Source: Escherichia coli (lineage in GTDB: Bacteria > Pseudomonadota > Gammaproteobacteria > Enterobacterales > Enterobacteriaceae). From it: a stretch of DNA of 64,000 bases. Each line of letters opens with the position of its first letter. Position 1 is the first letter of the stretch. A model generated the notes under the pieces. It was not told where the DNA came from. It saw nothing but the letters and a program-made list of their open reading frames with translations, and ran no database searches. The position numbers and the translations under genes are program-made. The DNA is taken from NCBI RefSeq assembly GCF_965641715.1, contig NZ_OZ282453.1; one strand, 5' to 3'. Positions 37,207-64,000 of this stretch are shown here, piece after piece.

Positions 37207-38106
37207 TTAACGCAATAATGGACAATCTGGTGGTAATCGACAACGCAACGCCGCCGGAAGTATTTCAATATGGAAGTTTTGCCCACTCAACGGTTCGCCA
37301 TCAAGATTAAAAGTGATTTCGTGTGGGGCTTGTATATCAAACCACGACGAAGCGCCTTCGATAATATTCGGGTTATCTTCGTCAGATTTTAAGGTTGATA
37401 CGAGAGCCGGAAGAATTTCATCGCCGGTAAAAATGCGCAGTTGCAGCAAGCCATCGTTAATTAACGCGTTCGGACACAATTGCTGACCGCCACCGGCCTG
37501 ACGCCCGTTACCAATACCAATGACCAGGGCGTCACCTTGCCAGTGAAAGTTTTCACCGCGGATTTCACAACGGTCCGGTTGCAGAGTATCCATGCGCATT
37601 AAGCCATGAATGATGTAAGAGACGCCACCCAGCGCGGCTTTTAATTTTTCCGGCGTTTCTGTGGTAATACGTGTCCCAAACCCGCCTGTCGCCATATTAA
37701 TAAAACAGGTTTGTTTGTTGACCTGCGCCATATCTATCGCAATGGCGTTACCGGCAATTGCCAGTTTCAGCGCCTTATCCAGTGCCTCAGGAATCCCTAC
37801 ACTGGTGGCAAAATCATTGGCGGTTCCTAATGGCAAAATTCCCAGCGCGGGTATGTTATCCCCCTCACACTGAATCAACGCCGTAGAAACTTCATTAATG
37901 GTGCCATCGCCACCACCGGCAATCACCGTTGCGACGCCCAACTTCCGGGCCTCCTCTACATATCGTGCGGCATCGCCTTTCTCCCAGGTGACCCGCACAT
38001 GGATCGTCATTCCTTCCTCACGCAACAGCATAATTGCTTCGCGCAATGGTAAATTGTCAGTACTTTTGCCATTAAGAATCAGTAAGCTGGCGGGAAATTC
38101 TGCCAT
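37207..38106 (-). CDS. yegS: Lipid kinase YegS (DAGK catalytic-domain family)
   Basis: 299 aa; N-terminus [15 protein letters not shown]; GGDGT motif. Confidence 0.9.
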
Positions 38107-38519
38107 GATCGTATGTGCCTTTATGATTGGTCTGTAGATAGTGTAGAGCAGAAAAGAAAAGGTGGAGTCAGAACAGGATGAAAGTCGGAGGATAAAAAGT
38201 CAGTTCAAGTATGGGGGATTCAGTGGTTACCACCAGGAGCTTGCAATGGGAACAGCGAATATTAACGGTAGCCACCGATAAATTTCAAAAAAGAGCATAT
38301 GCCTAATATTCAACCAAACAGTGGCATCTTAAATATACTATTCCAAATATATTAAAGCCCCCATGGAGTTACCCGGAAGGGCCTCCATGTCCGTAATTCC
38401 TACTTATGTAGGAAATGTTGTACAGAACATTTATTATAATCCTATTCAAATATAATAATCAGCCATTATTATATTTAAACACTAGAGAGTGTCGTTGGTA
38501 TTTAATGGGGAAAGGTGAG

Positions 38520-38837
38520 ATGAAAAAGATAGCTGCTATATCATTAATTAGTATTTTTATTATGTCTGGTTGTGCTGTGCATAATGATGAGACAAGTATC
38601 GGTAAATTTGGTCTTGCATATAAAAGTAATATTCAGCGTAAACTCGATAACCAATACTACACCGAAGCCGAAGCTTCTTTAGCCAGGGGCAGAATATCTG
38701 GTGCAGAAAATATAGTAAAAAATGATGCAGCCCATTTCTGTGTTACTCAGGGCAAAAAAATGCAGATAGTTGACCTGAAGACAGAAGGTGCAGGATTACA
38801 TGGCGTCGCTCGTCTGACATTCAAATGTGGAGAGTGA
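38520..38837 (+). CDS. yegR: Small lipoprotein YegR-like (105 aa)
   Basis: MKKIAAISLISIFIMSGC lipobox; AT-rich; start chosen at the internal ATG of the track ORF. Confidence 0.6.
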   Translation: MKKIAAISLISIFIMSGCAVHNDETSIGKFGLAYKSNIQRKLDNQYYTEAEASLARGRISGAENIVKNDAAHFCVTQGKKMQIVDLKTEGAGLHGVARLTFKCGE

Positions 38838-39101: not shown

Positions 39102-40115
39102 CTACCCTACTGTGGACACTGTGTGGACACTCTGAGAGCCAACACCACCACGTAGAGGATTAAGCGTTATCGCGTCCTGTAGGTACTCAGGGGCGAAGTG
39201 CGCATATGTCATTGTCTGCTCAATTCTTGAATGCCCAAGTATTCTCTGAAGCGTGATAATGTTGCCTCCGTTTATCATAAAGTGCGTGGCGAAGCTGTGC
39301 CGCAATGCGTGCGTAGCCTGACCCGGTGGTAGGTCGGGTTTCAGCTCCTTCATTAGCCGTCTGAACGCGGGATAGTTAGCATCAGTGAACAGATAGCCAC
39401 GCTTACCCGTTGTGATCATTGTTGCCAGTTCCTCGGATATAGGAACGGTTCGCGGCTTGTTGGTTTTTGTCTTAACGAAAGTGACGCGATTTTGAATGAT
39501 ATTTTCCGCTTTCAGTTTTGCTGCCTCACTCCATCTCGCGCCGGTGCTAAGGCAAAGAATCGCAATTTTTTTATTATCACCGTCCACTTTTGACAGCAGA
39601 AGCGCGATCTCCTCTTGCGTCAGGTAGCCGGTTTCTGGCTTATCCTCTTTGAGTCTTTTAAGACCTCGGAAAGGATGCTCCCCGAAAAATAGCTCCGCAT
39701 CTATCAACGCGGTAAACATCCCGCTAAGACACGTTAAATCACGATTTATACTCGATGGCTTGATGCCTTGAGAACGCCGCACAGTGCTGTATTGGCTTAT
39801 CAATGACTTAGTAATCTGAAAGGCACAAGGGTCACTGGTTATCTTTGTGAACAACTCTAACTTGCCCAGGTAATCTCGGCCGTGAGTTTCATACTTGCCT
39901 TTCAGCTCCCACCAGATTTTTGTTAGCTCTGACAGATGCCGCTTATCTGTCGGTTTCGCCAACCATTTTTTGTTGTGATGGTTGTACTGGGTATGCTTCT
40001 CGAAAGCGATAGCTTCGCTTTTCTTGTCAAATTTCCTGCGGATGCGCTTTCCGTTGCGCCCTGCAGGTCTAATGTCCACTTCATAACGACCATCATCGAG
40101 CTTTTTAACAGACAT
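39102..40115 (-). CDS. int: P2-type tyrosine integrase
   Basis: About 337 aa from MSVKKLDDGRYEVDIRPAGRNGKRIRRKF; C-terminal catalytic motifs HALRHSFATHF and LGHSRIEQTMTYAHF. Confidence 0.9.
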   Translation of the reverse strand: MSVKKLDDGRYEVDIRPAGRNGKRIRRKFDKKSEAIAFEKHTQYNHHNKKWLAKPTDKRHLSELTKIWWELKGKYETHGRDYLGKLELFTKITSDPCAFQITKSLISQYSTVRRSQGIKPSSINRDLTCLSGMFTALIDAELFFGEHPFRGLKRLKEDKPETGYLTQEEIALLLSKVDGDNKKIAILCLSTGARWSEAAKLKAENIIQNRVTFVKTKTNKPRTVPISEELATMITTGKRGYLFTDANYPAFRRLMKELKPDLPPGQATHALRHSFATHFMINGGNIITLQRILGHSRIEQTMTYAHFAPEYLQDAITLNPLRGGVGSQSVHTVSTVG

Positions 40116-40211
40116 AAAGCCTCCCGATGATGTTACTGCGTACTTCAATTTCCTGATTTAAATAACAAAAACTCACCGTGCATTTACTGCACAGATAAGC
40201 ACCGTAAATGG

Positions 40212-40508
40212 TTAGCCAGTTTTCTGGTCTGAGTGGGGTGACGTTGTTGTCTGCTGCCCAAAGTGCGCGAGAGCCGGTGCAATCTGCCCAGCTTCTGGTG
40301 ATATCGTCTCAGTCATGAACCACATGGTATATTTTTTGAACTGTGGATGATTCAAAATCTTCATCACTGCTTGTATGCCCATATCTTTTACTCCCTTCTC
40401 ATAACTAGAAAGAGAGCTATACGGAACTCCAGTTAAGTCACTGAATTCTTTTCTATTCATACGTTCCGACTCACGCATGATGGCCAGCTTCTCGTTGACG
40501 GGTATCAT
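40212..40508 (-). CDS. C: Immunity repressor C (HTH)
   Basis: About 98 aa from MIPVNEKLAIMRESERMNRKEFSDLTGVPYSSLSSYEKG; divergent from cox. Confidence 0.75.
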   Translation of the reverse strand: MIPVNEKLAIMRESERMNRKEFSDLTGVPYSSLSSYEKGVKDMGIQAVMKILNHPQFKKYTMWFMTETISPEAGQIAPALAHFGQQTTTSPHSDQKTG

Positions 40509-40591
40509 CGTAATTAACACTCCACTATTGATAGAAAAACGATAACGGAGTAATCTTCGCTTCGTTACCGCAGATTTATGGCTCCAATATG

Positions 40592-40621
40592 GCAATTAAA
40601 AGCCATTAGGAGCAATTAAAA
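40592..40621. promoter_or_regulatory. Direct repeats GCAATTAAAA x2 spaced 20 bp in the C-cox switch region; candidate C operator half-sites around the early promoter
   Basis: Seen in sequence; P2 C repressor is known to bind direct repeats flanking the early promoter -35 (recalled). Confidence 0.4.
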
Positions 40622-40643: not shown

Positions 40644-40919
40644 ATGAATAGGGTCATTGAGAGCGCGAGCGACGCGGTTCCGTATCAGGAGTTTGCGCGT
40701 CTTATTGGTAAAACCCCTGCTGCTGTCAAAGGGATGATTGAGAAAGGCAAACTACCGATAGTTGAGATGACTGATCCGCAGTCTACAAGTGGGAGAGCAG
40801 GGGAATACCGGGTATATCTGCCAGCATGGAACAAAGGCATGAAGATGGCCTATGACAGTCGCCCTAAAGAAATTCGTGATGGTTGGTTGATGTGGTTGGG
40901 ATTAGGTGAACCAGCATAA
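40644..40919 (+). CDS. cox: Cox excisionase/early-promoter repressor
   Basis: 91 aa; strongly P2 Cox-like by recollection (AVPYQEFARLIGKT...GRAGEYRVYLPAWN...IRDGWLMWLGLGEP). Confidence 0.85.
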   Translation: MNRVIESASDAVPYQEFARLIGKTPAAVKGMIEKGKLPIVEMTDPQSTSGRAGEYRVYLPAWNKGMKMAYDSRPKEIRDGWLMWLGLGEPA

Positions 40920-41100
40920 GGAGCCAGAAATGAAAGAGCCACGTTGTATAGCTCAGTTACTGCGTAACGAAAGTCCACGCCCGATGAAGTTCAACATCAC
41001 TCATGGTAAAGGGCGTAAAGGCATCATCATCCGCACTCGCAAGCCTGGATTTATTGCTATGGCTAAACGCTTTATGAAATCCCGAGGGATATCGTTATGA
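40906..41100 (+). CDS. Small early-operon ORF (64 aa), hypothetical
   Basis: Track ORF; position between cox and B as in P2. Confidence 0.4.
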   Translation: MNQHKEPEMKEPRCIAQLLRNESPRPMKFNITHGKGRKGIIIRTRKPGFIAMAKRFMKSRGISL

Positions 41101-41597
41101 CGGTTATGACTCTTGCATTAGTTCAAAAACAACCTGCAGCTCTACGCGTCGTTATAGGAAAGCATCTTGCGGAACCTCGCTGGCACGATACCTGTGATTT
41201 TTATAATCAGATGATGGAGCGTGACCGCTTGACTGTCTGTTTTCATGCTCGGTTAAAACAGCGTCACGCAGTAATGCGCTTTGAAGAAATGAATGATGTC
41301 GACCGCGAACGTCTGGCTTGTGCTATCGATGAGCTGCGCGCTGCTTTTTCAAAACGTCGTCAGGTTGGCGCAAGTGAATCTGCATATATTAGTTTTCTAA
41401 CGGTGGGTCAGCGCCGCTCTTTATTTCTACACGCGGGATTGAGTGAGGTCGAGTTCAATCAGCCTTACTGGCGCATTGACGAAGATGCTTGTTATTGGCG
41501 AGAGAAACTATTCCGCGCTTTGCGTGAGCTTTTTGGGTTATTTGAACACGCGCCAACGATATTAACCTCGGTAAAGCCTGAGCAGTATTTACATTAA
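41097..41597 (+). CDS. B: Replication protein B (helicase loader-like)
   Basis: 166 aa; same length and position as P2 gpB. Confidence 0.7.
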   Translation: MTVMTLALVQKQPAALRVVIGKHLAEPRWHDTCDFYNQMMERDRLTVCFHARLKQRHAVMRFEEMNDVDRERLACAIDELRAAFSKRRQVGASESAYISFLTVGQRRSLFLHAGLSEVEFNQPYWRIDEDACYWREKLFRALRELFGLFEHAPTILTSVKPEQYLH

Positions 41598-41904: not shown

Positions 41905-42180
41905 ATGAGTATCCGTATCGAGATAAATCATCAGTATGTAGTTACAAGCGATCGCTACCAGTTCATTTTGCAGGAAAAGAAAGTGGCGACTGCTGGAAAA
42001 AATAAAGGTAGCGAATGGCTTGATACTGTCGGGTATTACCCGACGATTCAAAAACTGATTTCTGGTCTGGTACTACATGACCTTTTAAATGGCGGTGCTG
42101 ATAGTTTTGCGGCGTTGGGTGAGCAGGTCGAGCAGTTGGGACTGCAATGTCAGACCGCGTTTTGTGCTGATGGCCGTTGA
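41905..42180 (+). CDS. Small early ORF (91 aa), hypothetical
   Basis: Track ORF. Confidence 0.4.
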   Translation: MSIRIEINHQYVVTSDRYQFILQEKKVATAGKNKGSEWLDTVGYYPTIQKLISGLVLHDLLNGGADSFAALGEQVEQLGLQCQTAFCADGR

Positions 42181-44461
42181 GACTCGGGGGCGTATTGCCC
42201 CCTCGCTAGCCCTGCCAATATCTAAGCGCACCGGCGATACTTTCGTTGGTGCTTATCCCTGGAATGCTCCCCGCGCTGCCATTGGCCGTGACAGACCCCT
42301 TACACGTGCCGAATTCCGTCAGGTGCAAGGTGTTTTATACCGGATTGACCGCCTGCCTTTCTTTCTTAAGACGTTGTTTACTTCCCGTTATAACTTCATT
42401 CGTCGCACAAAGAGCCCGCCCGGGGCGCTCTATTTCCTGAAAAACACCTTTGAGCGGAAGCTGTTGCCGCGTCTTGAGCGCGTTAACGAGCTGTGCGGGA
42501 TGAATGAATCTGCGTCGATTGGTTTCTTGTCTGAGCGTGACGAATATGCGCGCTTGCCTGATATGAATGACAAAGAGCTGAAAAAATTTGCGGCCAGAAT
42601 TGCCGCGCAGCTCTGGCGTAAATACGAGGAACTCAGCGACGAATGGGCTGAGGCATTCGGCGGTAAAGAGACCCTTTTCACCGATGAGGCGCAGGTGCAC
42701 ATATATGGTCAGGTGGCTGGTGTTGCACGCGCGTTCAACTTAACCCCGCTCTACTGGAAAAAATACCGTAAGGGTCAGATGACGATCCGCATGGCGTTTT
42801 CCGCTATTTCCCGTCTGATAAAAGATGATTGGTGGGTTAACCAGCTCAAGGCGCAGCGTATGCGCTGGCGCGAGGCGCTGCTTATCGCTGCCGGTGAAGT
42901 CAACAAAGACCGTTCACCTTACGCCAGCAAAATGGCGATCCGCGAGGTTCACTCGCGCCGGCTGGCTAATCTCGAATACCTGAAATCCTGTGAGCTGGAA
43001 AACAAAGTTACCGGCGAACGTATCGACCTCATCAGTAAAGTCATGGGGAGTATTTCAAACCCTGAAATACGCCGTATGGAGCTGATGAACACCATTGCCG
43101 GAATTGAACGCTATGCGGCCAGCGTTGGTGATGTGGGAATGTTTATCACGCTGACCACGCCGTCGAAGTATCACCCGACCCGACAGGTCGGCAAAGGTGA
43201 CAGCAAAACGGTGCAGCTCAATCACGGCTGGAACGAAACCGCATTCACCCCTAAAAACGGCCAGCGCTATCTGTGCCGAATCTGGAGCCTGATGCGTACC
43301 GCTTTCAAAGATAACGATTTGGAAGTGTATGGGATGCGCGTTGTCGAGCCGCACCACGACGGCACGCCACACTGGCATATGATGCTTTTTTGCAAACTCA
43401 GTCAGCGTAAAGCTATCAACGAAATTATGCGTCGTTATGCCCTCAAAGAGGACGGACACGAAAAGGGCGCGGCAAAACAGCGCTTTGAGTCGCGTCACCT
43501 TAATCAGGGGGGCGCGGCGGGTTATATCGCCAAATACATTGCCAAAAATATCGACGGCTACGCGCTTGACGGTCAGCTCGATCACGATACCGGCAAATCT
43601 CTGAAAGATACGGCCGCAGCCGTAACCGCATGGGCGTCTACATGGCGTATCCCTCAGTTTAAACCGATTGGCCTCCCGACAATGGGCGCTTACCGCGAAC
43701 TGCGTAAGCTGCCGCGCGGGGTGAGTATCGCCAGCGAGTTTGACGACCGTGTCGAGGCCGTCCGGGCTGCTGCAGATGAGGGGGAATTTGACCTGTACAT
43801 CAGCGCGCAGGGTGGGGCAAACATGCCGCGTGATGCTCAGGCGGTCAGGGTCGCCCGTAAGGTGACGGATGAGGTAAACGAATACGAGGAGGATATCGAG
43901 AAAGTGGTCGGTATTTATGCCCCTCATCTTGGGGTGAGCCGCGTACATGTAACCCGTACAGCGGAATGGCGCATAGTTCCAAAGGTTTTGGCCGTTGAGC
44001 CTTTGACCTTAAAAAGCGGCTCTGCCGCGCCTCGGAGTCCTGTCAATAACTGTGGAAAGCTTGCCGACGGTGGCGATCCAGTTATGACACCTACACCGTC
44101 TGAGCAAGCCGCAGCGGTGTTAAATCTGATTGAGGCCGGGGTTATCGGCTGGAATGAGCCAGACGTCATGAAGGTTCTTAACGGCGCGTTAAAAGCTGGC
44201 GCACCTCGCAATAATCGCCAGCAAAGAAGCAATGCGCCACTCAAAACGAGCGAGCAAGCTCCATCAGCCAGGATGACAACACCAGAAAGGGATCGCGTGG
44301 CGAAAATTCGTTTCGATTTGGCTCAGGAGGGCATTACCCCAGAACGGTGGGCGCTCGAAGCGCTGGCGCGTGGGGCAACGGTGATTTATGGCGATAAAAA
44401 AATCAAATACGCGGCTGCTGATGAGTGGCCGGGATTCTCAATTCAAGAGGAGCAGAATTAA
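42170..44461 (+). CDS. A: Replication initiation endonuclease A (rolling-circle Rep)
   Basis: About 763 aa from MAVETRGRIAPSLALPISKRTGDTFVGAYPW; HUH-like motif (HHDGTPHWHMMLF) and active-site Tyr region (AGYIAKYIAKNIDGY). Confidence 0.9.
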   Translation: MAVETRGRIAPSLALPISKRTGDTFVGAYPWNAPRAAIGRDRPLTRAEFRQVQGVLYRIDRLPFFLKTLFTSRYNFIRRTKSPPGALYFLKNTFERKLLPRLERVNELCGMNESASIGFLSERDEYARLPDMNDKELKKFAARIAAQLWRKYEELSDEWAEAFGGKETLFTDEAQVHIYGQVAGVARAFNLTPLYWKKYRKGQMTIRMAFSAISRLIKDDWWVNQLKAQRMRWREALLIAAGEVNKDRSPYASKMAIREVHSRRLANLEYLKSCELENKVTGERIDLISKVMGSISNPEIRRMELMNTIAGIERYAASVGDVGMFITLTTPSKYHPTRQVGKGDSKTVQLNHGWNETAFTPKNGQRYLCRIWSLMRTAFKDNDLEVYGMRVVEPHHDGTPHWHMMLFCKLSQRKAINEIMRRYALKEDGHEKGAAKQRFESRHLNQGGAAGYIAKYIAKNIDGYALDGQLDHDTGKSLKDTAAAVTAWASTWRIPQFKPIGLPTMGAYRELRKLPRGVSIASEFDDRVEAVRAAADEGEFDLYISAQGGANMPRDAQAVRVARKVTDEVNEYEEDIEKVVGIYAPHLGVSRVHVTRTAEWRIVPKVLAVEPLTLKSGSAAPRSPVNNCGKLADGGDPVMTPTPSEQAAAVLNLIEAGVIGWNEPDVMKVLNGALKAGAPRNNRQQRSNAPLKTSEQAPSARMTTPERDRVAKIRFDLAQEGITPERWALEALARGATVIYGDKKIKYAAADEWPGFSIQEEQN

Positions 44462-45443: not shown

Positions 45444-45462
45444 GGCGAGGCGGGGTAAGCGT
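45444..45462. other. Candidate cos (cohesive-end) site
   Basis: Seen: GGCGAGGCGGGGTAAGCGT; the first 12 nt match the P2/186 cohesive end GGCGAGGCGGGGAAAGCAC as I recall it; sits in a GC-rich, structured non-coding stretch. Confidence 0.5.
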
Positions 45463-45533
45463 TGCGCGCGCCTGTCAAAGATATTAAGATTGTCTCAAAA
45501 TCGATTGATTTTATTGAACTAATGGAGCTAGGA

Positions 45534-47090
45534 ATGATTAAGGGTATAGGTCTTCAAAACTTCAGGAGCTTTGTCAACAAAACGTTTATTGATTTAAAAC
45601 CAATTACAGTATTTGTTGGTAAGAACAGCAGTGGTAAAAGTTCCCTATTGCGCACATTTCCTTTACTTCGTCAATCTGTAGAAGAAAATACTACTGGCCC
45701 AATACTATGGTATGGGAGATATGTGGATTTTGGCGATTTTACAGATGTACTTTCCCGAAACTCTGAAAAAAAAGAAATTACGTTTAGTTTTTCACTCTCA
45801 ATTCCGCCAGAGGTTTCACAAAGATATACATATTATCGTTCTACTGATTTAGCAAAGCAACCAACAGATATTGAAGCAGAGTTAACTGTTTACTCTAAAG
45901 ATAAAAAAACAAAAACGAAAACGATTAAGCTTATATTGGCTGATTTAACAATATTTATTTCAATGGATGAGAGTAGTAATGTTAAATTACTCATTGAATC
46001 AGATGATAAAACAATAGAGCGTGATGGGATAATAGCTAAAAATCTTGGGCAGTTCATACCAAATCTAATTTTGAAGGGTAAGGAAGACAGTCCTCCTCCA
46101 AGCACATCATTCTATTTGAGACATTCTAGGCATGACAGGGCGTTAGAATTGTCATTTATTGATTCAGCGGCGAAATATATAAAGAAATATTTCCATACTA
46201 AATCTGATATAAATCAAGTGACAGAGGCATTCAAAAGAATTGGCTTTATACCCAAAGCGTACGCTAGTAAATTAGTTGCTTTTCTATTTAAGGAACAAAA
46301 AGTTTTTAGTAGAAACTTTGAATTTCAACATGATGAAATAATGAATGAGTTATATCCATTTATAATTGGATGGAATATTAATAATCTTATAGATATAATA
46401 AATACATCCTTGTCAGATTCATTCAGAAATGTAAAGTACATAGCTCCACTGCGTGCTACATCAGAAAGATTTTATCGTTTTCAAGATTTACAGGTTAATG
46501 AGATAGATCATACTGGTTCCAATCTTGCAATGCTTTTGAATTCATTAAGACCGGCTGATAAATCAAAATTTGAAGATTGGACAAAGTTAAATTTTGATTT
46601 CATTATCAAGGTTGAACAAAGTGGCTCTCACTTTGCAATTTTAATAAACACCGGTGAAAATAGTGAGAACTATAATGTTAGTGATATGGGGTTTGGTTAT
46701 TCTCAGGTTTTGCCGATAGTTACAGCCATTTGGCTTGAGACAGAACGTCGTGCTACCACGGTTAGAAAACCTATAACATTTATCATTGAGCAGCCAGAAT
46801 TGCATTTACATCCGTCATATCAGCATAATTTAGCAAGTATTTTTGCAAAAGTAGTAACTAAAGCAAAAGAAAATAATGTAGATTTGAAGATAATTTTTGA
46901 GACACATAGCCAGACCATGATTGAAGCACTTGGTGAATATATTGAGGAAAATGAAAGTCTTTCACAGGATGATATTTCAATACTGGTATTTGAAAAAGAT
47001 GATAAGCAGCAGACTATAGTTAAGAAATCTTATTTTGACGAGAATGGTTTCCTAAAAAATTGGCCGGTTGGCTTTTTCTCGGGTAAGTAG
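45534..47090 (+). CDS. Cargo gene 1: ABC/OLD-type (AAA_15/AAA_21-like) ATPase, about 518 aa
   Basis: Walker A GKNSSGKSS; Walker B/D-loop FIIEQPELHLHP; H-loop-like IFETHS; AT-rich; SD GGAG upstream of the ATG chosen at MIKGIGLQNFRSF. Confidence 0.75.
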   Translation: MIKGIGLQNFRSFVNKTFIDLKPITVFVGKNSSGKSSLLRTFPLLRQSVEENTTGPILWYGRYVDFGDFTDVLSRNSEKKEITFSFSLSIPPEVSQRYTYYRSTDLAKQPTDIEAELTVYSKDKKTKTKTIKLILADLTIFISMDESSNVKLLIESDDKTIERDGIIAKNLGQFIPNLILKGKEDSPPPSTSFYLRHSRHDRALELSFIDSAAKYIKKYFHTKSDINQVTEAFKRIGFIPKAYASKLVAFLFKEQKVFSRNFEFQHDEIMNELYPFIIGWNINNLIDIINTSLSDSFRNVKYIAPLRATSERFYRFQDLQVNEIDHTGSNLAMLLNSLRPADKSKFEDWTKLNFDFIIKVEQSGSHFAILINTGENSENYNVSDMGFGYSQVLPIVTAIWLETERRATTVRKPITFIIEQPELHLHPSYQHNLASIFAKVVTKAKENNVDLKIIFETHSQTMIEALGEYIEENESLSQDDISILVFEKDDKQQTIVKKSYFDENGFLKNWPVGFFSGK

Positions 47091-47092
47091 TT

Positions 47093-48205
47093 ATGTTGAT
47101 TAATATCGAAAATGCGACACCTGAGAAGGTGCTAAATAACTCATTTGCCATAGCGGTTGAAAATATACTTCGGGCATTCGCTGAACAAAAACACTTGGTT
47201 ATAGGGGCAAGGGTTTTTTTTAAAACTATTATCAATGATCAAAGCGGGCTTTATAGCCTTTCATCAAAAAGTTACGCGCAAGAGGCTTTGTCGGGTCTAA
47301 CAGAGTACTATGCTATCTTGGATCAGGTCTCATTTTATGTATCTGTCGACTTTAATATTAGTGATAAATCATTTAAATGGGTTCAGATCGGTGAATCTTT
47401 TAAATTTGTTTGTGGTCCATTGTATTTTAATGACTCGGCACAATTGCAAAAAACGAAAATAGTATGTGAAAATCCTTTGGATTCTGATTTTTTTAAGGTT
47501 ATAGCGGCTCATTATGCCGAAGGTATTAACTTATCTCGCTGCGAAATGGGTTTTATCGCTCTAAATGGCGGTGGGGGCAGTACTAAGGATATATTCGAGC
47601 GTGCAATTCAAAATAATGAGATAGTTTTTTGTATTGTGGATAATGACAAAAAACATCCTGGAGCCCCATTCGGAGGTACTTGCTCACATTTTTTGGGCTC
47701 ACAAATTACTCGCTCAGGTTTCGTGGAGATTTTAGATGTACATGAAATAGAATCTCTAGTTCCTTTATCGACAATTGAAGATGTATTAAGAAGTCAAAGT
47801 CAATTGCAACAAAAAGAAAAATCTCTCATTTTCTTTAAGCATCTTTGCTCCGTAGATGAATCAGTAAAATTTTATATTGACCATAAAAAAGGTTTTGATT
47901 TTAAAACAGCCCTTGAACTCGATCGAAAACATGGTGCATATTGGCGTCCGATATTAAAGAAGCTTGATATAAAATATGATTGTGAGTATATCGAATCAAA
48001 ACGTTGTAGCTGCAACGCTGCTTGTGTAAGTTATGATGGTTTTGGAGAGAATTTGCTCAGCAATACATTGAAATATATACAAAAGGGAAGTTTAAAAAAA
48101 TATAATCCTCACCTAACACCAGTGCTTTCTGATAAATGGTATAAGTTAGGTAAGAATTTCTTTAGTTGGAGTTGTGGTCCATATAAAAAAGCAAGGGTTG
48201 GTTAA
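47093..48205 (+). CDS. Cargo gene 2: 370-aa partner protein, possible TOPRIM/DUF4435-like effector with C-terminal Cys cluster
   Basis: ATG 2 nt after the cargo-1 stop; hydrophobic strand plus DxD (IVFCIVDNDKKHPG); CEYIESKRCSCNAAC cluster; AT-rich. Confidence 0.65.
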   Translation: MLINIENATPEKVLNNSFAIAVENILRAFAEQKHLVIGARVFFKTIINDQSGLYSLSSKSYAQEALSGLTEYYAILDQVSFYVSVDFNISDKSFKWVQIGESFKFVCGPLYFNDSAQLQKTKIVCENPLDSDFFKVIAAHYAEGINLSRCEMGFIALNGGGGSTKDIFERAIQNNEIVFCIVDNDKKHPGAPFGGTCSHFLGSQITRSGFVEILDVHEIESLVPLSTIEDVLRSQSQLQQKEKSLIFFKHLCSVDESVKFYIDHKKGFDFKTALELDRKHGAYWRPILKKLDIKYDCEYIESKRCSCNAACVSYDGFGENLLSNTLKYIQKGSLKKYNPHLTPVLSDKWYKLGKNFFSWSCGPYKKARVG

Positions 48206-48300: not shown

Positions 48301-49308
48301 TCAAAGTGAATATTTTTTAAATCTTATAACTTCCATTTCTAACCAGTTGTTTAGTTCTTTGAACCGTTCCTGTAAAGGAGTTAACTCATTTCGGACAAAC
48401 ACTTGTGCAGCTTTTACAACATCACCAAAACCGCCAACATTGTCAGGCATAATTCCCATCATTTGTGGTGGTACCCTATGAGCACTCAACAAATCTTCTG
48501 CACTAACCTTTTTGATATTGAAAAAATCATCTTTCGTGGCGACTTCACTCAACGGCACAATCTTGATGCCATCCGGTTTCCCGTTGGGCGCGTAGAAAAA
48601 CAGGTTTTTGAAATTCCCGAGTCCTTTTGAGTCGCGCATCGCGTTACGGAGAGATTCAACATCGGTGCTGCTCTGTGCCGCGTCGGTGACATACATGATG
48701 TACCCCGCATGTGCGCCATTCTGATAATACTTGCGGCGAAACAGGGTAGCGGATTCATTCAGCCAGGCGGAATTAAGCGCGCTCAGGTATTCCGGCATCC
48801 CGTACAGCTCCTGATTGATATCGGGCTCAAGCAGGTGACACACAGAACCGGGGGCGAACGGGTGCGGCTGGGTGTAGCTCGACACGTACCAGTAAACGCC
48901 ATCTTCGACACCCCGGCGGGTGTATTTGGCCGGTGAGGTTTCCAGTTTTAAGAGCTGGCCGGTGACGCTCATGCGCTTCTCAAGATAGCCGTTGGCAAAA
49001 ACCAGATAATCAAGCACAAGGCGACTGAAATCCTGACGTGACAGCAACGGGTGCGGGATATAGGTGCTCGTCAGAATGTTACGTTTCACGTAAATCGGCG
49101 AGCTGTGATGGACGGCGGCGCGCAGGCTTTTTGCCAGTCCCGAGAAATTGACCGGCGGCTCGTACCATTTCCCGTTATTGATACACTCTACGTAGTCGAG
49201 GATGTCGCGGCGATCCAGAACGGGAGAAGGCTCACCAAAGGTGAACGCCTCCATTTTTTGCGGTGCGCTGGCGGTCATTGTGGCGGGTTTCTTCTGTCGT
49301 TTTTTCAT
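48301..49308 (-). CDS. Q: Portal protein (gpQ)
   Basis: 335 aa; position and length as P2 Q; divergent from the capsid operon. Confidence 0.85.
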   Translation of the reverse strand: MKKRQKKPATMTASAPQKMEAFTFGEPSPVLDRRDILDYVECINNGKWYEPPVNFSGLAKSLRAAVHHSSPIYVKRNILTSTYIPHPLLSRQDFSRLVLDYLVFANGYLEKRMSVTGQLLKLETSPAKYTRRGVEDGVYWYVSSYTQPHPFAPGSVCHLLEPDINQELYGMPEYLSALNSAWLNESATLFRRKYYQNGAHAGYIMYVTDAAQSSTDVESLRNAMRDSKGLGNFKNLFFYAPNGKPDGIKIVPLSEVATKDDFFNIKKVSAEDLLSAHRVPPQMMGIMPDNVGGFGDVVKAAQVFVRNELTPLQERFKELNNWLEMEVIRFKKYSL

Positions 49309-49309
49309 C

Positions 49310-51079
49310 TTAGTTAATATCCAGAATTGAGGTTGATTGCATGCCGCTACCGGCGGAAAGCGGCTCGTTTAACAGGGCGTGCATGGTCGCCCACGCAATA
49401 TCCGCGTGACTGGCTTCCTCGCTGCGGCTGGCTTCATAGGTGGCACTGCGCCCGCTGCTGGTCATGGTTTTACGGATCGCCATAAATGACTGCGTGATGT
49501 CGGTTGCTCCGGCGTCATATTCCAGACACCCGCGTCGGATGGTGTCTTTCGCTTTCAGCACCATCGCGGTTTTCATTTCCGGCGTGTAGCGAATGGCGCG
49601 CGCTGCCGGGAAGAAGGAGCGCACGAGCTGGTAAACACCCTGGCCGATGCCGGTCGCATCGATGCCGATATACTCGACGCAATATTTCTCTGTCAGCTCG
49701 CGGATGGCCTCGGCCTGCGTCGCAAAACCCATCCCTTTCCACTGGTGACGCTCAAGGATGCGGAACTTGCCACCGGCAACCAGTGGCGGAGCCAGTACCG
49801 CACAGCCTGCGCTGTCGCCGGTGTGCGACGGGTCATAGCCAATCCAGACCGGACGCCAGTTAAACGGACGGTCAGAGAACGGCGCAAAGTCCTCCCATTC
49901 TTCCATCGCATCGACCATGCAGCGCTGCAGCTCCTCGAACGGGAATACCGACGCTTTATCGTCGACGAATTCGCACATGAAGAGGTTGCGGAAATCGTCG
50001 GCGCTGTTTTCCTGTTTCAGTTGATCCAGATTAAACAGGGTGCAGCCACCGGCGAGGGCATCCTCAATGGTGACGATCTGCCGCCACTGCCCGTCCGGGC
50101 ACAGCACGCCACCGGCGAGCGCCTTATGACTGATGTCAATGTCGACACGCTCACTCGCGCTGCTGCGTCCCCTGTTGAACAGCTCACCTGACCAGAACGG
50201 ATACGCGCCGTGCGCCAGCGTCGAAGGGGTTGAAAAATAGGTGGTGCGCAGGTGGGATTGTGACGCCATCCCCGAGGCCACTTTACGCAGCCGCTGAAAG
50301 TTGGGGATCCAGAAGATTTCATCGACATACAGGTCGCCGTTATGGCTCTGCGCGGTGTTGGAGTTTGTCCCGAGGAAAATCAGCTCTGCACCGTTGTTGC
50401 CGATAACAATCGGGTCGCCTGACAGGTCGACGTCGACCATGCGCGCAAAGGCGATGATGTACTTTCGGAACACGTAAGCCAGCGTCTTACTGGCTGACAA
50501 AAATATCTGGTTTTGCCCGGTTTTGAGGGCGCGCAGTAATGACTCACGGGCAAAGTAGAACGTCGCGCCAATCTGGCGTGATTTGAGGATGTGGCGAATA
50601 CGGTGCGCGATACCGGCCTTGTGCCAGTTGAGCTGATACTCAAAGGACTGGTCGAAGAAAATCTCTTCCAGCTTTTCGATGGCCTCATCGCTGAAAAAAT
50701 TGCGTTTCGGCTTGCGGCGATCGCCCTTGTTACGACTGGCAATGTTGGGGTTTAAATCCACTTCATTACCGGTCTGGCCGTAGCGGTTGATGCGTGCGAA
50801 CCGTTCCATCTGGCGTGACAGAAAGTCAGCGACCTTAAAGTCATGCGGCGTCAGGTCAGGCTTTGCATAAAGCTGAATCAGGCGCGCCTCGAGCGTCGTT
50901 TCCACGCGGTTAAGCGGGGCGGTTTCCTCCCACCCGTCACGCTGTTTCCAGCTCTGCACGGTCGGGCGCTTAACCTGCAGTGTGTCGGCGATTTGTGGCA
51001 CGGAAAATCCCTGCCAGAACAACAGCCGCGCCTGTCGTCGCGGGTCATGCAAAAGGGAGAGGTCAGTCGAAATGGTCAT
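49310..51079 (-). CDS. P: Terminase large (ATPase) subunit (gpP)
   Basis: About 589 aa from MTISTDLSLLHD; the track ORF begins at an upstream TTG. Confidence 0.85.
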   Translation of the reverse strand: MTISTDLSLLHDPRRQARLLFWQGFSVPQIADTLQVKRPTVQSWKQRDGWEETAPLNRVETTLEARLIQLYAKPDLTPHDFKVADFLSRQMERFARINRYGQTGNEVDLNPNIASRNKGDRRKPKRNFFSDEAIEKLEEIFFDQSFEYQLNWHKAGIAHRIRHILKSRQIGATFYFARESLLRALKTGQNQIFLSASKTLAYVFRKYIIAFARMVDVDLSGDPIVIGNNGAELIFLGTNSNTAQSHNGDLYVDEIFWIPNFQRLRKVASGMASQSHLRTTYFSTPSTLAHGAYPFWSGELFNRGRSSASERVDIDISHKALAGGVLCPDGQWRQIVTIEDALAGGCTLFNLDQLKQENSADDFRNLFMCEFVDDKASVFPFEELQRCMVDAMEEWEDFAPFSDRPFNWRPVWIGYDPSHTGDSAGCAVLAPPLVAGGKFRILERHQWKGMGFATQAEAIRELTEKYCVEYIGIDATGIGQGVYQLVRSFFPAARAIRYTPEMKTAMVLKAKDTIRRGCLEYDAGATDITQSFMAIRKTMTSSGRSATYEASRSEEASHADIAWATMHALLNEPLSAGSGMQSTSILDIN

Positions 51080-51245
51080 GGTTGCCTCGTACTGGTGAAT
51101 ACGGGGCAAGGCTAAGGAAATAGCCGGGTATTATCGCTAACCCCCTGTTGTGTCAGGGGTTGCACTTCCGCAAGCGGTGGCTGATGTGGGGCGGAGTCGG
51201 GAAACTACCCCCGAACCGAAAACCCAACATCAGGACACCTGAACA

Positions 51246-56056: not shown

Positions 56057-56486
56057 CGCCGTGCCGCAGTTAAAAAACAATCCCGAAATGATGCGCATCT
56101 TTGCCGATGAGGGAAATATCTATGCGCGTCTCGCGGCCTCGCTGTCTCATGAAAAGAATTACACCCTGAATGTGATCGTCTGCGATTTTGTGGGCGACCC
56201 TGACCTGATTTTCGTGCCGGTGGCGGCATGGCTGCGTGAGAACCAGCCGGATATCTGCACGCTGGATGAGGGGCGCAAAAAGGGCTATCGGTTCCAGATG
56301 GATTTAAACGACGGTGATAATGTGGATATCAGTATCAGCCTGCAGCTCACCGAGCGCACTCTCGTCAGGGATGAAAATGGTGCGCTGCACGTCAGCTATG
56401 CGCCTGAACCACCTTTACCCGAGCCGGTGACGCGGCCAACTGAGCTGTATATCAATGGCGAACTGGTGAGCAAATGGGATGAATGA
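56019..56486 (+). CDS. R: Tail completion protein R
   Basis: 155 aa; position. Confidence 0.75.
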   Translation: MQKMKSLRQALTDAVPQLKNNPEMMRIFADEGNIYARLAASLSHEKNYTLNVIVCDFVGDPDLIFVPVAAWLRENQPDICTLDEGRKKGYRFQMDLNDGDNVDISISLQLTERTLVRDENGALHVSYAPEPPLPEPVTRPTELYINGELVSKWDE

Positions 56487-56946
56487 ATTTAAACCTTTTG
56501 ATGACAAGCTTGCGGGGTTGATTGCGGCAATATCACCGGCGGGTAGGCGTAAGCTGGCCGCTGAAATAGCAAAGCAACTGCGCAGATCGCAACAGCAACG
56601 CATCAAACAGCAAATTGCGCCTGATGGCACGCCGTATCAGGCTCGTAAGCGCCAGCCGCTCAGGGCAAAATCGGGGCGAATCAAAAGGTCGATGTTCCAG
56701 AAATTGCGAACCAGTCGCTACATGAAAGCCAGTGGCCGCAATGATGCCGCCGTGGTGGAGTTTACCGGCAAAGTGCAACGCATCGCCCAGATTCATCAGC
56801 TCGGACTCAAAGACCGGCCAAACCCTCATGCTCAGGACGTGCAATACCCGGAACGCCAGTTACTCGGATTTAGCATGACTGATAAGGAGTTGATTGAACT
56901 GTTAATTAACATGCATTTCAGAAAAAATACTGTGGCTGAATGCTGA
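56479..56946 (+). CDS. S: Tail completion protein S
   Basis: 155 aa; position. Confidence 0.75.
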   Translation: MNEFKPFDDKLAGLIAAISPAGRRKLAAEIAKQLRRSQQQRIKQQIAPDGTPYQARKRQPLRAKSGRIKRSMFQKLRTSRYMKASGRNDAAVVEFTGKVQRIAQIHQLGLKDRPNPHAQDVQYPERQLLGFSMTDKELIELLINMHFRKNTVAEC

Positions 56947-57038
56947 GAGTCCTAAGAAAATAGAGAAAGCAGATATTATACAAAAAAGATAATATCTGCT
57001 GCTGGGTCGATATTTGAATGTATTTATTTAATCTATTG

Positions 57039-57791
57039 CTAACGTTCGAATATTATTATCACCCCAAGAGTGAGATGTATATGATCTTCTATTTGTTCAT
57101 ATTCTTCTTGGGTGTAAGAAAGTTTAGCTAATTCTTCTGTTGCTGAAAAGACATCAATGGATACTTGGACGCCTGATGGGATTTCATTTTTTATTTCATT
57201 AATGTATTTGTTGTATTTTCTTGTGATTAGTATTATTGCGCGATCTCTGTCGACGGTGGTTGAGCAATATCGATTGGATTTGCTGTTGTTATTGTGGAAT
57301 GATTCGAATGCGCAATTGAGGGCAAGTCTTAGATTTGATGATCCTGTATTTCCAGTGTGATTGAAGTATTCTATGTTTCTTCTTAAGTCTTCAAATAGTT
57401 TTGCCTTATTTGGATTGTCCCCTTTAACTTCAATAGCACATTTTGGATAATCAAACCCATTATTATTGCCTAGTATGGCAATGTCTATCCTACCTTTTCT
57501 GGTTGTGTTTGCTTTGATTCTTAGTATTTGCCTTGAAAATATTTTCCCCGGCGTTAGTCTTTTTGAAAATGGCACCGTTGAAGTTATAAAATCCCCTGTA
57601 TCATATTCAAAAATTATTTTCTCATCATCTATGTGAAAATTTTTACTATCAAGTAGGGCTTTGCCTATTGATACAGTAGCGACGTATTCGGTATTGATTT
57701 TACCACCAGAACTGAAATTCATTAAACGTGTGATTTTAGCTGCATTGGACATGCCATCCTTTACTGCTGTGATTATTTCGTAATTGTCCAT
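57039..57791 (-). CDS. Cargo gene (moron), 250 aa, candidate PD-(D/E)xK-fold nuclease
   Basis: Opposite strand to the late genes; AT-rich; motif RIDIAILG...CAIEVKGD (D...E-x-K). Confidence 0.6.
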   Translation of the reverse strand: MDNYEIITAVKDGMSNAAKITRLMNFSSGGKINTEYVATVSIGKALLDSKNFHIDDEKIIFEYDTGDFITSTVPFSKRLTPGKIFSRQILRIKANTTRKGRIDIAILGNNNGFDYPKCAIEVKGDNPNKAKLFEDLRRNIEYFNHTGNTGSSNLRLALNCAFESFHNNNSKSNRYCSTTVDRDRAIILITRKYNKYINEIKNEIPSGVQVSIDVFSATEELAKLSYTQEEYEQIEDHIHLTLGVIIIFER

Positions 57792-58109
57792 ATTATTTAC
57801 TCAGGTAACTGTTTTATTTTGATTGTTCTTACTGGATGTTTTATAAGTATAATAATTTGGATTATGCTAATCAACTAGTCTTCTTTCGGCTTTTACTAAT
57901 GACTCATTTATGAATGATAATGTTATGATTCCAGCAACCGAAGTGGGTATTTTTTTGCACCCAAGTGATCGTTTTGTGGAACTAATATGAGTCTATAAGT
58001 ATCCCTATTTCACTAGTAGGTTGAGACGTCACACTTGCTGGCTGTTGTTTCATGCCCCACAAAACTCAGCTCAATTGTCGCTGGCCTCACTAGGCGGCAT
58101 CCTTTCCCC

Positions 58110-62229: not shown

Positions 62230-62807
62230 TGACTTTCAAAATGACCGGGAAAAGCCGGACAATCACTGTTTATAACTATCGCGCAGATACCTGTGAATTT
62301 ATTGGAAAAGGTGACGCCCTGATCCCACCATTTACCGGACTCCCTGCCTGTTGTACCAGTGAAAAACCGCCAGAAACCAGCGCGGGATGTATTCCCGTTT
62401 ACGACACTGAAAGCGGACGATGGAACATCACTGAAGACCACAGGGGTGAGGTTGTCTATGACACTGAAACAGGTCATCAGATGGAGATAACCGAACCGGG
62501 TAAATATCCGACAGGGACAACAACCGCTGCACCTGAAAACCCGTGGCAAAAATGGAATGGTAAAGCATGGATTGATGATGCTGATGCAGAACGGAATGCA
62601 TTGACTGAGTCTGCGAAAAACAACAAAAGCATGCTTCTTAAGCAGGCCAATACTGCGGTTGCGACATTACAGGACGCTGTTGATCTGGAGATGGCAACCG
62701 AAGATGAAAAAGCACAGCTCGCGGCATGGAGGAAATACCGTGTTTTACTGAGCCGCATCCAGCCAGAGAATGCCCCGGATATTGAATGGCCGCCGCTGCC
62801 AGTCTGA
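62229..62807 (+). CDS. G: Tail fiber assembly chaperone G
   Basis: 192 aa; start overlaps the H stop. Confidence 0.75.
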   Translation: MTFKMTGKSRTITVYNYRADTCEFIGKGDALIPPFTGLPACCTSEKPPETSAGCIPVYDTESGRWNITEDHRGEVVYDTETGHQMEITEPGKYPTGTTTAAPENPWQKWNGKAWIDDADAERNALTESAKNNKSMLLKQANTAVATLQDAVDLEMATEDEKAQLAAWRKYRVLLSRIQPENAPDIEWPPLPV

Positions 62808-62941
62808 TCCGACATCCGGCGGGCAGTTGCCCGCCTTTTCCTTTCCCGTCGTTGTGCCAGACCTTAGCCAACCCTGACAAATAGCCCCTCATCACCACAC
62901 AACAGAAAATACACTCACCCCTTAACCACGGAGTTAAACGG

Positions 62942-64000
62942 ATGAGTGACTATCATCACGGCGTCGAGGTCATCGAGATTAACGATGGCGTGCGCACCAT
63001 TTCCACCGTTTCAACCGCCATTATCGGCATGGTCTGTACGGCCAGCGATGCTGACGAGAAAACATTTCCCCTCAATGAGCCGGTACTCATTACGAACGTG
63101 CAGAGTGCTATCGGTAAGGCTGGCAAAAAGGGCACGCTGTCGACGTCCCTGCAGGCTATCGCTGACCAGTGCAAACCTGTCATCGTGGCCGTGCGTGTGG
63201 CCGAAGGTATTGAAGATCCGGAGAACCCCGAAGCGGCGCACAAACAGACCATTTCCAATATCATCGGCACCACCGATGAAAACGGCAAATATACCGGGCT
63301 GAAAGCCCTGCTGACGGCGAAAACCGTCACCGGCGTTAAGCCACGGATTCTCGGCGTGCCGGGGCTGGATTCGCAGGAAGTGGCGACCGCGCTCGCGTCC
63401 ACCTGTCAGAGCCTGCGCGCCTTTGGCTATATCAGCGCGTGGGGCTGTAAAACCATTTCCGATGCCATCGACTACCGCGAGAATTTCAGCCAGCGTGAGC
63501 TGATGGTCATCTTCCCTGATTTTCTGGCATGGGACACCACGGCGAACGCGACCGCGACAACCTGGGCGACGGCGCGCGCACTCGGCCTGCGTGCCAAAAT
63601 CGACCAGACGGTCGGCTGGCATAAAACCCTGTCTAACGTTGGCGTTAACGGTGTGACCGGCGTCAGTGCCTCAGTATCGTGGGATTTGCAGGAACCGGCG
63701 ACCGACGCCAACCTGCTGAATCAGGCTGGTGTCACTACGCTTATCCGCAATGATGGTTTCAAATTTTGGGGAAACCGTACCTGCTCAGATGATCCGCTTT
63801 TCCTGTTTGAAAACTACACCCGCACCGCGCAGGTGCTGGCCGACACGATGGCGGAGGCGCACGCGTGGGCGATGGATAAACCCATTACCCCGACCCTCAT
63901 TCGCGATATCGTTTCCGGTATCAATGCCAAATTCCGCGAGCTGAAAACCAACGGTTATATCGTTGACGGCTTCTGCTGGTACGACCCGGAGTCGAACGAC
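62942..64000 (+). CDS. FI: Tail sheath protein FI (partial, runs off the window end)
   Basis: Translation MSDYHHGVEVIEINDGVRTISTVSTAIIGMVCTASDADEKTFPLNEPVLITNVQSAIGKAGKKGTL is P2 FI-like; frame open to position 64000. Confidence 0.85.
   Translation, partial: MSDYHHGVEVIEINDGVRTISTVSTAIIGMVCTASDADEKTFPLNEPVLITNVQSAIGKAGKKGTLSTSLQAIADQCKPVIVAVRVAEGIEDPENPEAAHKQTISNIIGTTDENGKYTGLKALLTAKTVTGVKPRILGVPGLDSQEVATALASTCQSLRAFGYISAWGCKTISDAIDYRENFSQRELMVIFPDFLAWDTTANATATTWATARALGLRAKIDQTVGWHKTLSNVGVNGVTGVSASVSWDLQEPATDANLLNQAGVTTLIRNDGFKFWGNRTCSDDPLFLFENYTRTAQVLADTMAEAHAWAMDKPITPTLIRDIVSGINAKFRELKTNGYIVDGFCWYDPESND

Follow-up and report, generated by a model that had tools for sequence, protein, structure and literature searches.

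What is a single AT-rich gene doing on the opposite strand between the tail genes S and V of a P2-like prophage? The question is raised by a stretch of 64,000 nucleotides from Escherichia coli (contig NZ_OZ282453.1 of assembly GCF_965641715.1), which we call the window and in which a minus-strand open reading frame (ORF) of 250 amino acids occupies positions 57039..57791. A preliminary description of this locus had proposed that the ORF is cargo encoding a PD-(D/E)xK-like protein, possibly a nuclease with a role in abortive infection or superinfection exclusion. Sequence comparison identifies the product as a diverged, full-length homologue of Tin of phage P2. We propose, with a probability of about three in four, that the gene is a diverged member of the Tin family which works as a single-protein exclusion module, is carried as a self-contained lysogenic-conversion cassette in the S-V slot, and acts with the help of catalysis. 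What is new is a diverged member rather than a new category, both the family and the cargo slot being already known.

The ORF lies between S and V exactly as described, with an ATG start and with the stop codon included in its coordinates. The description of an AT-rich gene in AT-rich non-coding surroundings likewise holds: the content of guanine plus cytosine (GC) is 0.347 in the gene and 0.338 in the whole cassette against 0.56 in the neighbouring late genes, with a trough of 0.31-0.37 over about 56950-58000 between flanks of 0.55-0.61, and the non-coding spacers measure 92 bp downstream and 315 bp upstream. By our own arithmetic, in which about 7% of random codons are stops at 34% GC, a random stop-free run of 250 codons has odds of about 1e-8; given these odds and the many homologues (25 clusters at 50-100% identity), the ORF is not a product of chance. 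At NCBI the exact protein carries the label 'hypothetical protein [Escherichia coli]' and occurs in two forms, of 250 amino acids (29 contigs) and 237 amino acids (21 contigs), which apparently differ in the start codon called. In its first 13 residues the longer form is conserved with P2 Tin, and these residues fall within a confidently predicted helix; for both reasons we take the 250-residue start to be correct.

The assignment to Tin rests on matches along the entire protein. The PADLOC model for Tin (PDLC02359) matches at E 5.6e-93 over model positions 2-238 of 239, and P2 Tin itself (NP_046797.1) aligns collinearly over the full 250 amino acids, with 55.6% identity, one two-residue gap and a BLASTP E-value of 2e-96. 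In a tblastn search against 50,697 phage records the sole match was phage P2, at the feature annotated tin. The protein also matches PHROG 9821 (E 1.2e-91), a family labelled 'unknown function'; NCBIfam and the PDB sequences gave no match to it, and Pfam gave nothing at E<=0.001 for this protein or for any of the 72 relatives that we aligned. The protein of about 250 amino acids stands alone, with no obligatory partner: the cassette holds a single gene, and homologues are solitary in several unrelated mobile contexts. The guess of superinfection exclusion was right in kind, in that the protein is a homologue of P2 Tin.

The two proteins are alike in length (250 versus 253 amino acids), their genes are alike in composition (GC 0.347 versus 0.329), and both genes lie in P2-type prophages on the strand opposite to their neighbours. 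They differ in place. According to the P2 record, tin adjoins old in the A-Q ('TO') hotspot, where the two genes are transcribed into one old-tin mRNA with old first, and Orf30 occupies the S-V junction, whereas the gene described here lies between S and V and lacks old; the layout beside old is a trait of P2 itself and not of the family. With respect to P2 biology the payload is not new, but belongs to P2's own tin gene family, relocated from A-Q to the Orf30 slot without old.

Where does the cargo begin and end, and what does it bring along? The features of the junction, in window coordinates, are these:

56479..56946, plus strand: gpS, tail completion, left flank (PHROG 26, E 4.6e-47)
56919..58042, no strand assigned: swapped cargo cassette of about 1.1 kb, GC 0.338, delimited by homology breaks against sibling prophages and by composition
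56953..57000, minus strand: hairpin with a perfect 12-bp stem (56968-56979 / 56989-57000), followed by UUUCUCUAUUUUCUU; likely intrinsic terminator of the tin-like gene
57039..57791, minus strand: tin-like gene for a 250-amino-acid Tin-family protein (ORF, PADLOC Tin, identity to P2 Tin, PHROG, AlphaFold2 model)
57792..58042, minus strand: AT-rich upstream region private to the cassette, with a sigma-70-like promoter candidate
58043..58061, plus strand: element TGTTGTTTCATGCCCCACA, resembling the activator-binding site of a late promoter (pV), called from a pattern match and likeness to P2
58107 (ATG)..58751, plus strand: gpV, baseplate spike/assembly, right flank (PHROG 6142, E 7.8e-38)

Homology to sibling prophages with other cargo (L012 and L013) stops at 56867-56918 and returns at 58035-58043, and from 58035 onward the nucleotide identity to these prophages is 83-91%. 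The surrounding late genes, R before S and W, J, I, H, G and FI after V, all run on the plus strand. Beside the left edge we observed that the breakpoint falls inside gpS, of which the last ~9 codons (56919-56946) are AT-rich and not shared with sibling prophages; because of this position, and because gpS has 155 amino acids here versus 148-150 in the siblings, the cargo swap has rewritten the C-terminus of an essential tail-completion protein.

The hairpin at 56968-57000 is a 100% complementary inverted repeat (I4) with a 9-nt loop, forms the dominant stem in the RNA fold and is followed on the minus strand by a U-rich tract, which makes it a plausible intrinsic terminator judging from its sequence. 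A consensus terminator scan missed it, possibly because the loop exceeds the 8-nt limit of the scan, and over the 106-nt stretch as a whole the RNA-fold z-score reaches only -1.46. In the upstream region, which is not shared even with the 72%-identical homologue from the S-V slot, the promoter candidate runs from 57874 to 57846 on the minus strand (TTGATT-17-TATACT, 9/12 matches); the region contains nine promoter-like sites where 5.3 are expected, which makes this weak evidence. We also looked for a hidden partner (an antitoxin, a small ORF or a small RNA) in the 315-bp and 92-bp spacers and rejected what we found, namely chance ORFs of 25-40 amino acids and one sub-threshold small nucleolar RNA match; Rfam gave no credible RNA in the upstream region. 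Flanking inverted repeats such as those reported around fun(Z) were sought and none was convincing, the only clean repeat being the terminator hairpin. Given its own terminator hairpin, its private upstream region and the lack of a credible small ORF or RNA, the cassette looks like a self-contained single-gene transcription unit.

At the right edge, TGTTGTTTCATGCCCCACA resembles TGTTGTCTGGTAGTTCTACA, which lies within the annotated pV activator site of P2 (10239-10266), and is placed about 46 bp from the start of V, a distance similar to that in P2. The exact TGT-N12-ACA activator consensus is absent at pV; a looser TGTTGT-N10-ACA element is present, and since the window contains this pattern no more often than chance would give, its reading as a putative pV activator site rests on position and on likeness to P2. 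The right boundary of the cassette coincides with TGTTGTTTCATGCCCCACA, and we conclude from this that the late promoter of V was kept and that the cargo was inserted just upstream of it, as in P2. This bears on the preliminary description, in which the gene was said to interrupt the late operon. In the P2 record a terminator behind S closes the O operon, and V is the first gene of a separate late operon that is activated by Ogr and has its own activator site; by analogy with P2, the tin-like gene sits between two operons and interrupts none.

Is the S-V junction, then, a regular address for such cargo? Unrelated genes occur there between conserved flanks, the cassette described here having a GC of 0.338 versus 0.56, and the proposal of a cargo site with a varied payload agrees with the different genes that we find between the same flanks across sibling prophages. 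In E. coli T-HYM1 (NZ_CP141767.1, L012 2019-2948) the occupant is a minus-strand hypothetical protein of 309 amino acids, with no PADLOC match, and in E. coli WCHEC005784 (NZ_CP028578.2, L013 1190-2804) it is a plus-strand DUF262 protein overlapping a HEPN-domain protein, the former matching the PADLOC models NsnA (6.6e-80) and PD-T4-2_A (9.5e-43). By these matches, the Orf30 slot can carry recognised defence-type genes in either orientation. Tin-like genes occupy it here and at four further loci (L002-L004 and L025).

P2 was also said in the preliminary description to carry an unrelated orf30 at this junction, and the P2 record bears this out. P2 Orf30 resembles our gene in its setting, being encoded on the minus strand past the end of S and ahead of the pV activator site, with 261 amino acids and a GC content of 0.34; it differs in sequence and lacks a PADLOC match or known function. 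Kinship of the 250-amino-acid protein with Orf30 was accordingly rejected for want of sequence similarity. In phage R18C the slot holds a 741-bp ORF of unknown nature (PMC6823313), which is presumably not Tin-like, as P2 was the only phage in which our tblastn search of the phage database detected Tin. Three loci of P2-like phages have been listed as sites of horizontally acquired genes, namely the TO region, the Z region and orf30 (PMC3091744). The studies of defence hotspots that we consulted focused on loci other than S-V: on A-Q (PMC9122126), on A-Q together with Z/fun (PMC9519451) and, in a preprint, on A-Q, Z/fun and a third locus near the CI repressor.

The wider distribution of Tin genes is that of a mobile family. 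The exact protein was found on 29 contigs, in one case again beside gpS, and clusters P0002 (72% identity) and P0005 (67%) fill the S-V slot of other P2-like prophages, likewise on the opposite strand. P2-type copies (87-100% identical to P2 Tin) in IMG/VR contigs and complete E. coli genomes are always beside old, between A/orf91 and Q. Other clades occur on a ParM/ParB plasmid-like element, beside the integrase of a Morganella lambdoid-type prophage with lambda-J-like tail genes, and in AlpA-type islands of Pectobacterium and Klebsiella aerogenes. The homologues are confined to these mobile contexts (S-V, A-Q, plasmid-like element, prophage and AlpA islands) rather than to housekeeping ones; together with the GC trough and the homology breaks, this upholds the view of the gene as horizontally acquired, opposite-strand AT-rich cargo. 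The contexts of the distant members P0031, P0054 and P0097 are metagenomic contigs of 1-3 kb and uninformative. Tin-type genes are rare in E. coli, being detectable in 17 of 5,426 complete RefSeq genomes, of which three that we sampled have the P2-type old-tin layout; the variant described here was found in none of the 5,426. The annotation pipeline PGAP gives the label 'hypothetical protein' even to genuine P2-type tin genes beside old (itself annotated 'ATP-dependent nuclease') in RefSeq genomes of E. coli such as L022-L024, and the family, with ~183 representative clusters, lacks a Pfam or NCBIfam model.

A 64%-identical homologue on a viral contig (L021 1161-1909; IMGVR_UViG_2654587799_000002), in a context that is not P2-like, consists of two overlapping pieces, 1161-1547 and 1538-1909. 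Its sequence suggests a frameshift, either in a pseudogene or through an assembly error.

How might such a protein act? The AlphaFold2 model, built on 24 homologues, has a mean predicted local distance difference test score (pLDDT) of 84.9 and a predicted template modelling score (pTM) of 0.86, with low confidence only in loops 77-87 and 169-174. Its elements follow the order helix 34-48, strands 57-64, 101-108 and 115-125, helix 129-144 and strand 156-166, so that the predicted model contains the alpha-beta-beta-beta-alpha-beta core of the PD-(D/E)xK superfamily. Foldseek gave no significant match against the PDB; against AFDB50 it gave 73 neighbours at E<=1e-3 in several phyla, several of them annotated as restriction endonuclease, Mrr domain or HsdR N-terminal domain. 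The known structures listed in the fold comparison, with their figures, are OkrAI 8.2, BglII 8.0, the restriction-endonuclease-like protein 3ijm 7.4, Bse634I 7.0, NucC 7.0, BamHI 6.9, NgoMIV 6.9 and Cfr10I 6.8.

A profile search of 1.84 billion representatives returned 183 relatives, 99 of them at E<=1e-10, and in the conservation alignment of 72 full-length relatives, which reaches down to ~20% identity, only E35, E62, D103, E121, K123, D135 and R138 are invariant (72/72). Within the predicted elements, E35 opens helix 34-48, E62 is on strand 57-64, D103 on strand 101-108, E121 and K123 on strand 115-125, and D135 and R138 on helix 129-144. The residues that define the superfamily, an acidic residue on strand 2 and (D/E)xK on strand 3, often joined by a glutamate on the first helix, are all found, with E35, D103, E121 and K123 at canonical PD-(D/E)xK positions. 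A D-[IV]-x...E-x-K motif recurs in most full-length distant members, and the E/D/ExK residues of P2 Tin are identical. The motif singled out in the preliminary description, RIDIAILGNNNGFDYPKCAIEVKGD, corresponds to residues 101-125, and its reading as a PD-(D/E)xK signature gains support from the predicted core together with the invariant motif residues in the 72 relatives. We regard a PD-(D/E)xK, or restriction-endonuclease-like, core in the Tin-like protein as supported by the model.

This likeness has its limits. The groups of BamHI, OkrAI and BglII and of Bse634I, NgoMIV and Cfr10I, as well as NucC, an effector of the cyclic-oligonucleotide-based antiphage signalling system (CBASS), have the known PD-(D/E)xK fold; they differ from the Tin-like protein in that sequence identity is only 8-11% with no profile-level match, and in that the Tin cassette has neither a methyltransferase nor a cyclic-nucleotide signalling partner. 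Sequence-specific DNA cleavage by the Tin-like protein is not implied by the resemblance to restriction enzymes.

For the function we rely on P2. Its record describes tin as 'nonessential; lysogenic conversion; blocks growth of T-even phages'. Tested alone as its own system in the BASEL study, Tin blocked all Tevenvirinae and no other BASEL phage (PMC8594841), and cloned old-tin protects (PMC9122126). The accepted model, as given in papers citing Mosig et al. 1997, is that Tin poisons gp32, the single-stranded-DNA-binding protein (SSB) of T4. We propose that the diverged Tin-like gene would be active in the lysogen, its expression not depending on the late operons that Ogr activates. On infection by a T-even-type phage, its product would act on the replication apparatus of the invader, and phage DNA synthesis would stop. 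Genetically the route may be that of P2 Tin, through gp32, and the mechanism would include the cutting of nucleic acid on or close to replication intermediates coated with gp32, rather than being a purely stoichiometric 'poisoning'. We infer the part played by catalysis from the restriction-endonuclease-like core with its fully conserved E...D...ExK site.

Several points weigh against this proposal. The published mechanism, as reported by the citing papers, is poisoning of a protein and not nucleolysis, and the searchable literature yielded no description of Tin as a nuclease, although one may be published elsewhere. No curated PD-(D/E)xK profile from Pfam, NCBIfam or the PDB sequences matches the protein, and no link to a named nuclease family appears at Pfam E<=0.001, the single-member hints being PDDEXK_9 (0.024) and HSDR_N_2 (0.088). 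That the invariant residues cluster in space is deduced from their secondary-structure positions only, and the conserved acidic and lysine residues could instead bind metal or DNA. The promoter call is weak. Finally, at 55.6% identity, with 44% of the residues changed from P2 Tin, the target range and the trigger could differ, and so may the range of phages or SSB variants recognised.

The proposal can also be carried further, to a reading in which Tin is the founder of a widespread and uncurated family of PD-(D/E)xK nucleases of about 250 amino acids, whose nucleolytic anti-phage action is triggered by or targeted through the phage SSB, with the S-V-slot clade as a specificity variant for different phage SSBs. 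Its base is the 183 representative clusters at 50% identity and the structural relatives in several bacterial phyla; we hold it tentatively, somewhat short of even odds. Defence systems triggered by a phage SSB exist, retron Eco8 being one example. The likeness to Eco8-type systems, an effector activated by or acting on the phage SSB, applies only if Tin senses gp32; they differ in having no sequence or architectural relation to Tin, which is a single protein of ~250 amino acids.

Next comes the possibility of a gp32 'poison' without catalysis, the role proposed for P2 Tin: the nuclease-like fold would be an exapted scaffold, and its conserved residues would contribute to the binding of single-stranded DNA or gp32. 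As far as citing papers convey it, this model is the published one, and it fits the lack of a Pfam nuclease profile match. Inactive PD-(D/E)xK scaffolds are known in general, which also speaks for it. However, such residues are usually lost in exapted scaffolds, whereas here all 72 sequences, with identities as low as ~20%, keep the E, D and ExK residues together with D135 and R138, as would be expected of an active enzyme, and we consider a purely binding role rather unlikely.

We judge as less probable still a modification-dependent, type IV-like nuclease that attacks the hydroxymethylcytosine or glucosyl-hydroxymethylcytosine DNA of T-even phages, in which case the gp32 genetics would reflect access to or protection of DNA and not direct sensing of gp32. 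A predicted restriction-endonuclease-like fold with an intact D...ExK site would suit such an enzyme, as would the Mrr-domain and restriction endonuclease annotations of some AFDB neighbours, and the cassette lacks a methyltransferase partner, as expected for type IV. Moreover, within the BASEL panel P2 Tin targets all Tevenvirinae, the group whose cytosines are hypermodified, and spares the rest (PMC8594841). Yet Tin is reported to act via gp32, as the title and summaries of Mosig 1997 put it, the sequence matches none of the families Mrr, McrB/C and GmrSD, and no separate DNA-recognition domain was found, the 250 amino acids forming a single compact domain in the model.

A role outside defence, as a nuclease of benefit to the phage (e.g. 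in recombination or host DNA degradation) or as a decaying, functionless passenger, could draw on the 'hypothetical protein' labels of Tin-type genes and on the one viral-contig homologue split in two frames (L021), but is very improbable in view of the full-length conservation with intact invariant residues, the private AT-rich region opposite to the late operons, which is the classic P2 lysogenic-conversion layout (tin, old, fun, orf30), the DUF262 and HEPN pair matching NsnA and PD-T4-2_A in the same slot of a sibling prophage, and the demonstrated anti-phage activity of the P2 homologue.

If the SSB-directed nuclease reading were true, it would revise a mechanism that is ~30 years old and define a new single-protein defence family; the invariant E...D...ExK site in a predicted restriction-endonuclease-like fold, which curated databases leave unannotated, makes the gp32-poisoning model directly testable. 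Apart from the mechanism, tin is a free-standing module: it moves from one P2 hotspot to the other (A-Q, S-V), reaches other mobile elements too, and is not tied to old. Recognised defence genes in the S-V/Orf30 slot add to the evidence that the late-gene junctions of P2-like prophages are reservoirs of defence. The Tin-type genes that we encountered, including true P2-type copies, are unlabelled by RefSeq, Pfam and NCBIfam and recognised only by PADLOC, and are therefore missed in routine annotation.

The prophage as a whole (GC 56%) adjoins the gat operon genes of E. coli. It is P2-like but diverged: in the S-V flanks it is ~74% identical to P2 at the nucleotide level, and among phages it is matched best by Enterobacter phage ENT4, at 83.6%. 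Its genes ahead of the late operons are arranged as follows:

39102-40148, minus strand: int
40212-40595, minus strand: C
40644-40919: cox
41097-41597: B
42089-44461: A
after A and before the two-gene cargo: orf91-like gene
45462-48205, plus strand: two-gene cargo between A and Q, GC 0.338
48301-49308, minus strand: Q
49310-51109, minus strand: P, with the late genes next

The slot that holds old and tin in P2 is filled here by two other genes. The first encodes an ATPase of 542 amino acids of the ATP-binding cassette type (DUF3696), with PADLOC matches to NsnB (4.9e-55), PDC-M55A (7.5e-46) and AriA (7e-31) and also weak matches to the Old/GajA N-terminal region; the second, 2 bp after it, encodes 370 amino acids, has no Pfam or PHROG match and matches PDC-M55B weakly (2e-4). 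Each of the two is widespread in E. coli (264 to >1000 contigs), and the pair is probably a two-gene defence system that replaces old-tin. The arrangement, with tin uncoupled from old in the Orf30 slot and another ATPase system in the TO slot, illustrates the shuffling of modules between P2 hotspots.

The window contains no tRNA gene, and the attachment site was not located. Beyond int, at 37207-38837, lie a minus-strand ORF of 299 amino acids (phrog_8777, E 2.7e-135) and a plus-strand ORF of 140 amino acids (phrog_21109, E 7.6e-74), both of phage families of unknown function; they might represent cargo that separates int from the attachment site, or else belong to a different element.

The junction of G and FI had been described as only about 135 bp long and free of cargo of the Z/fun type, and this is what we find: G ends at 62807 and FI starts with the ATG at 62943 (MSDYHHGVEV...), with 135 bp between them. 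The interval (62808-62942) contains only a GC-rich hairpin followed by T's at ~62816-62840, CCGGCGGGCAGTTGCCCGCCTTTT, which is likely the terminator of the V operon, with the pF region directly after it.

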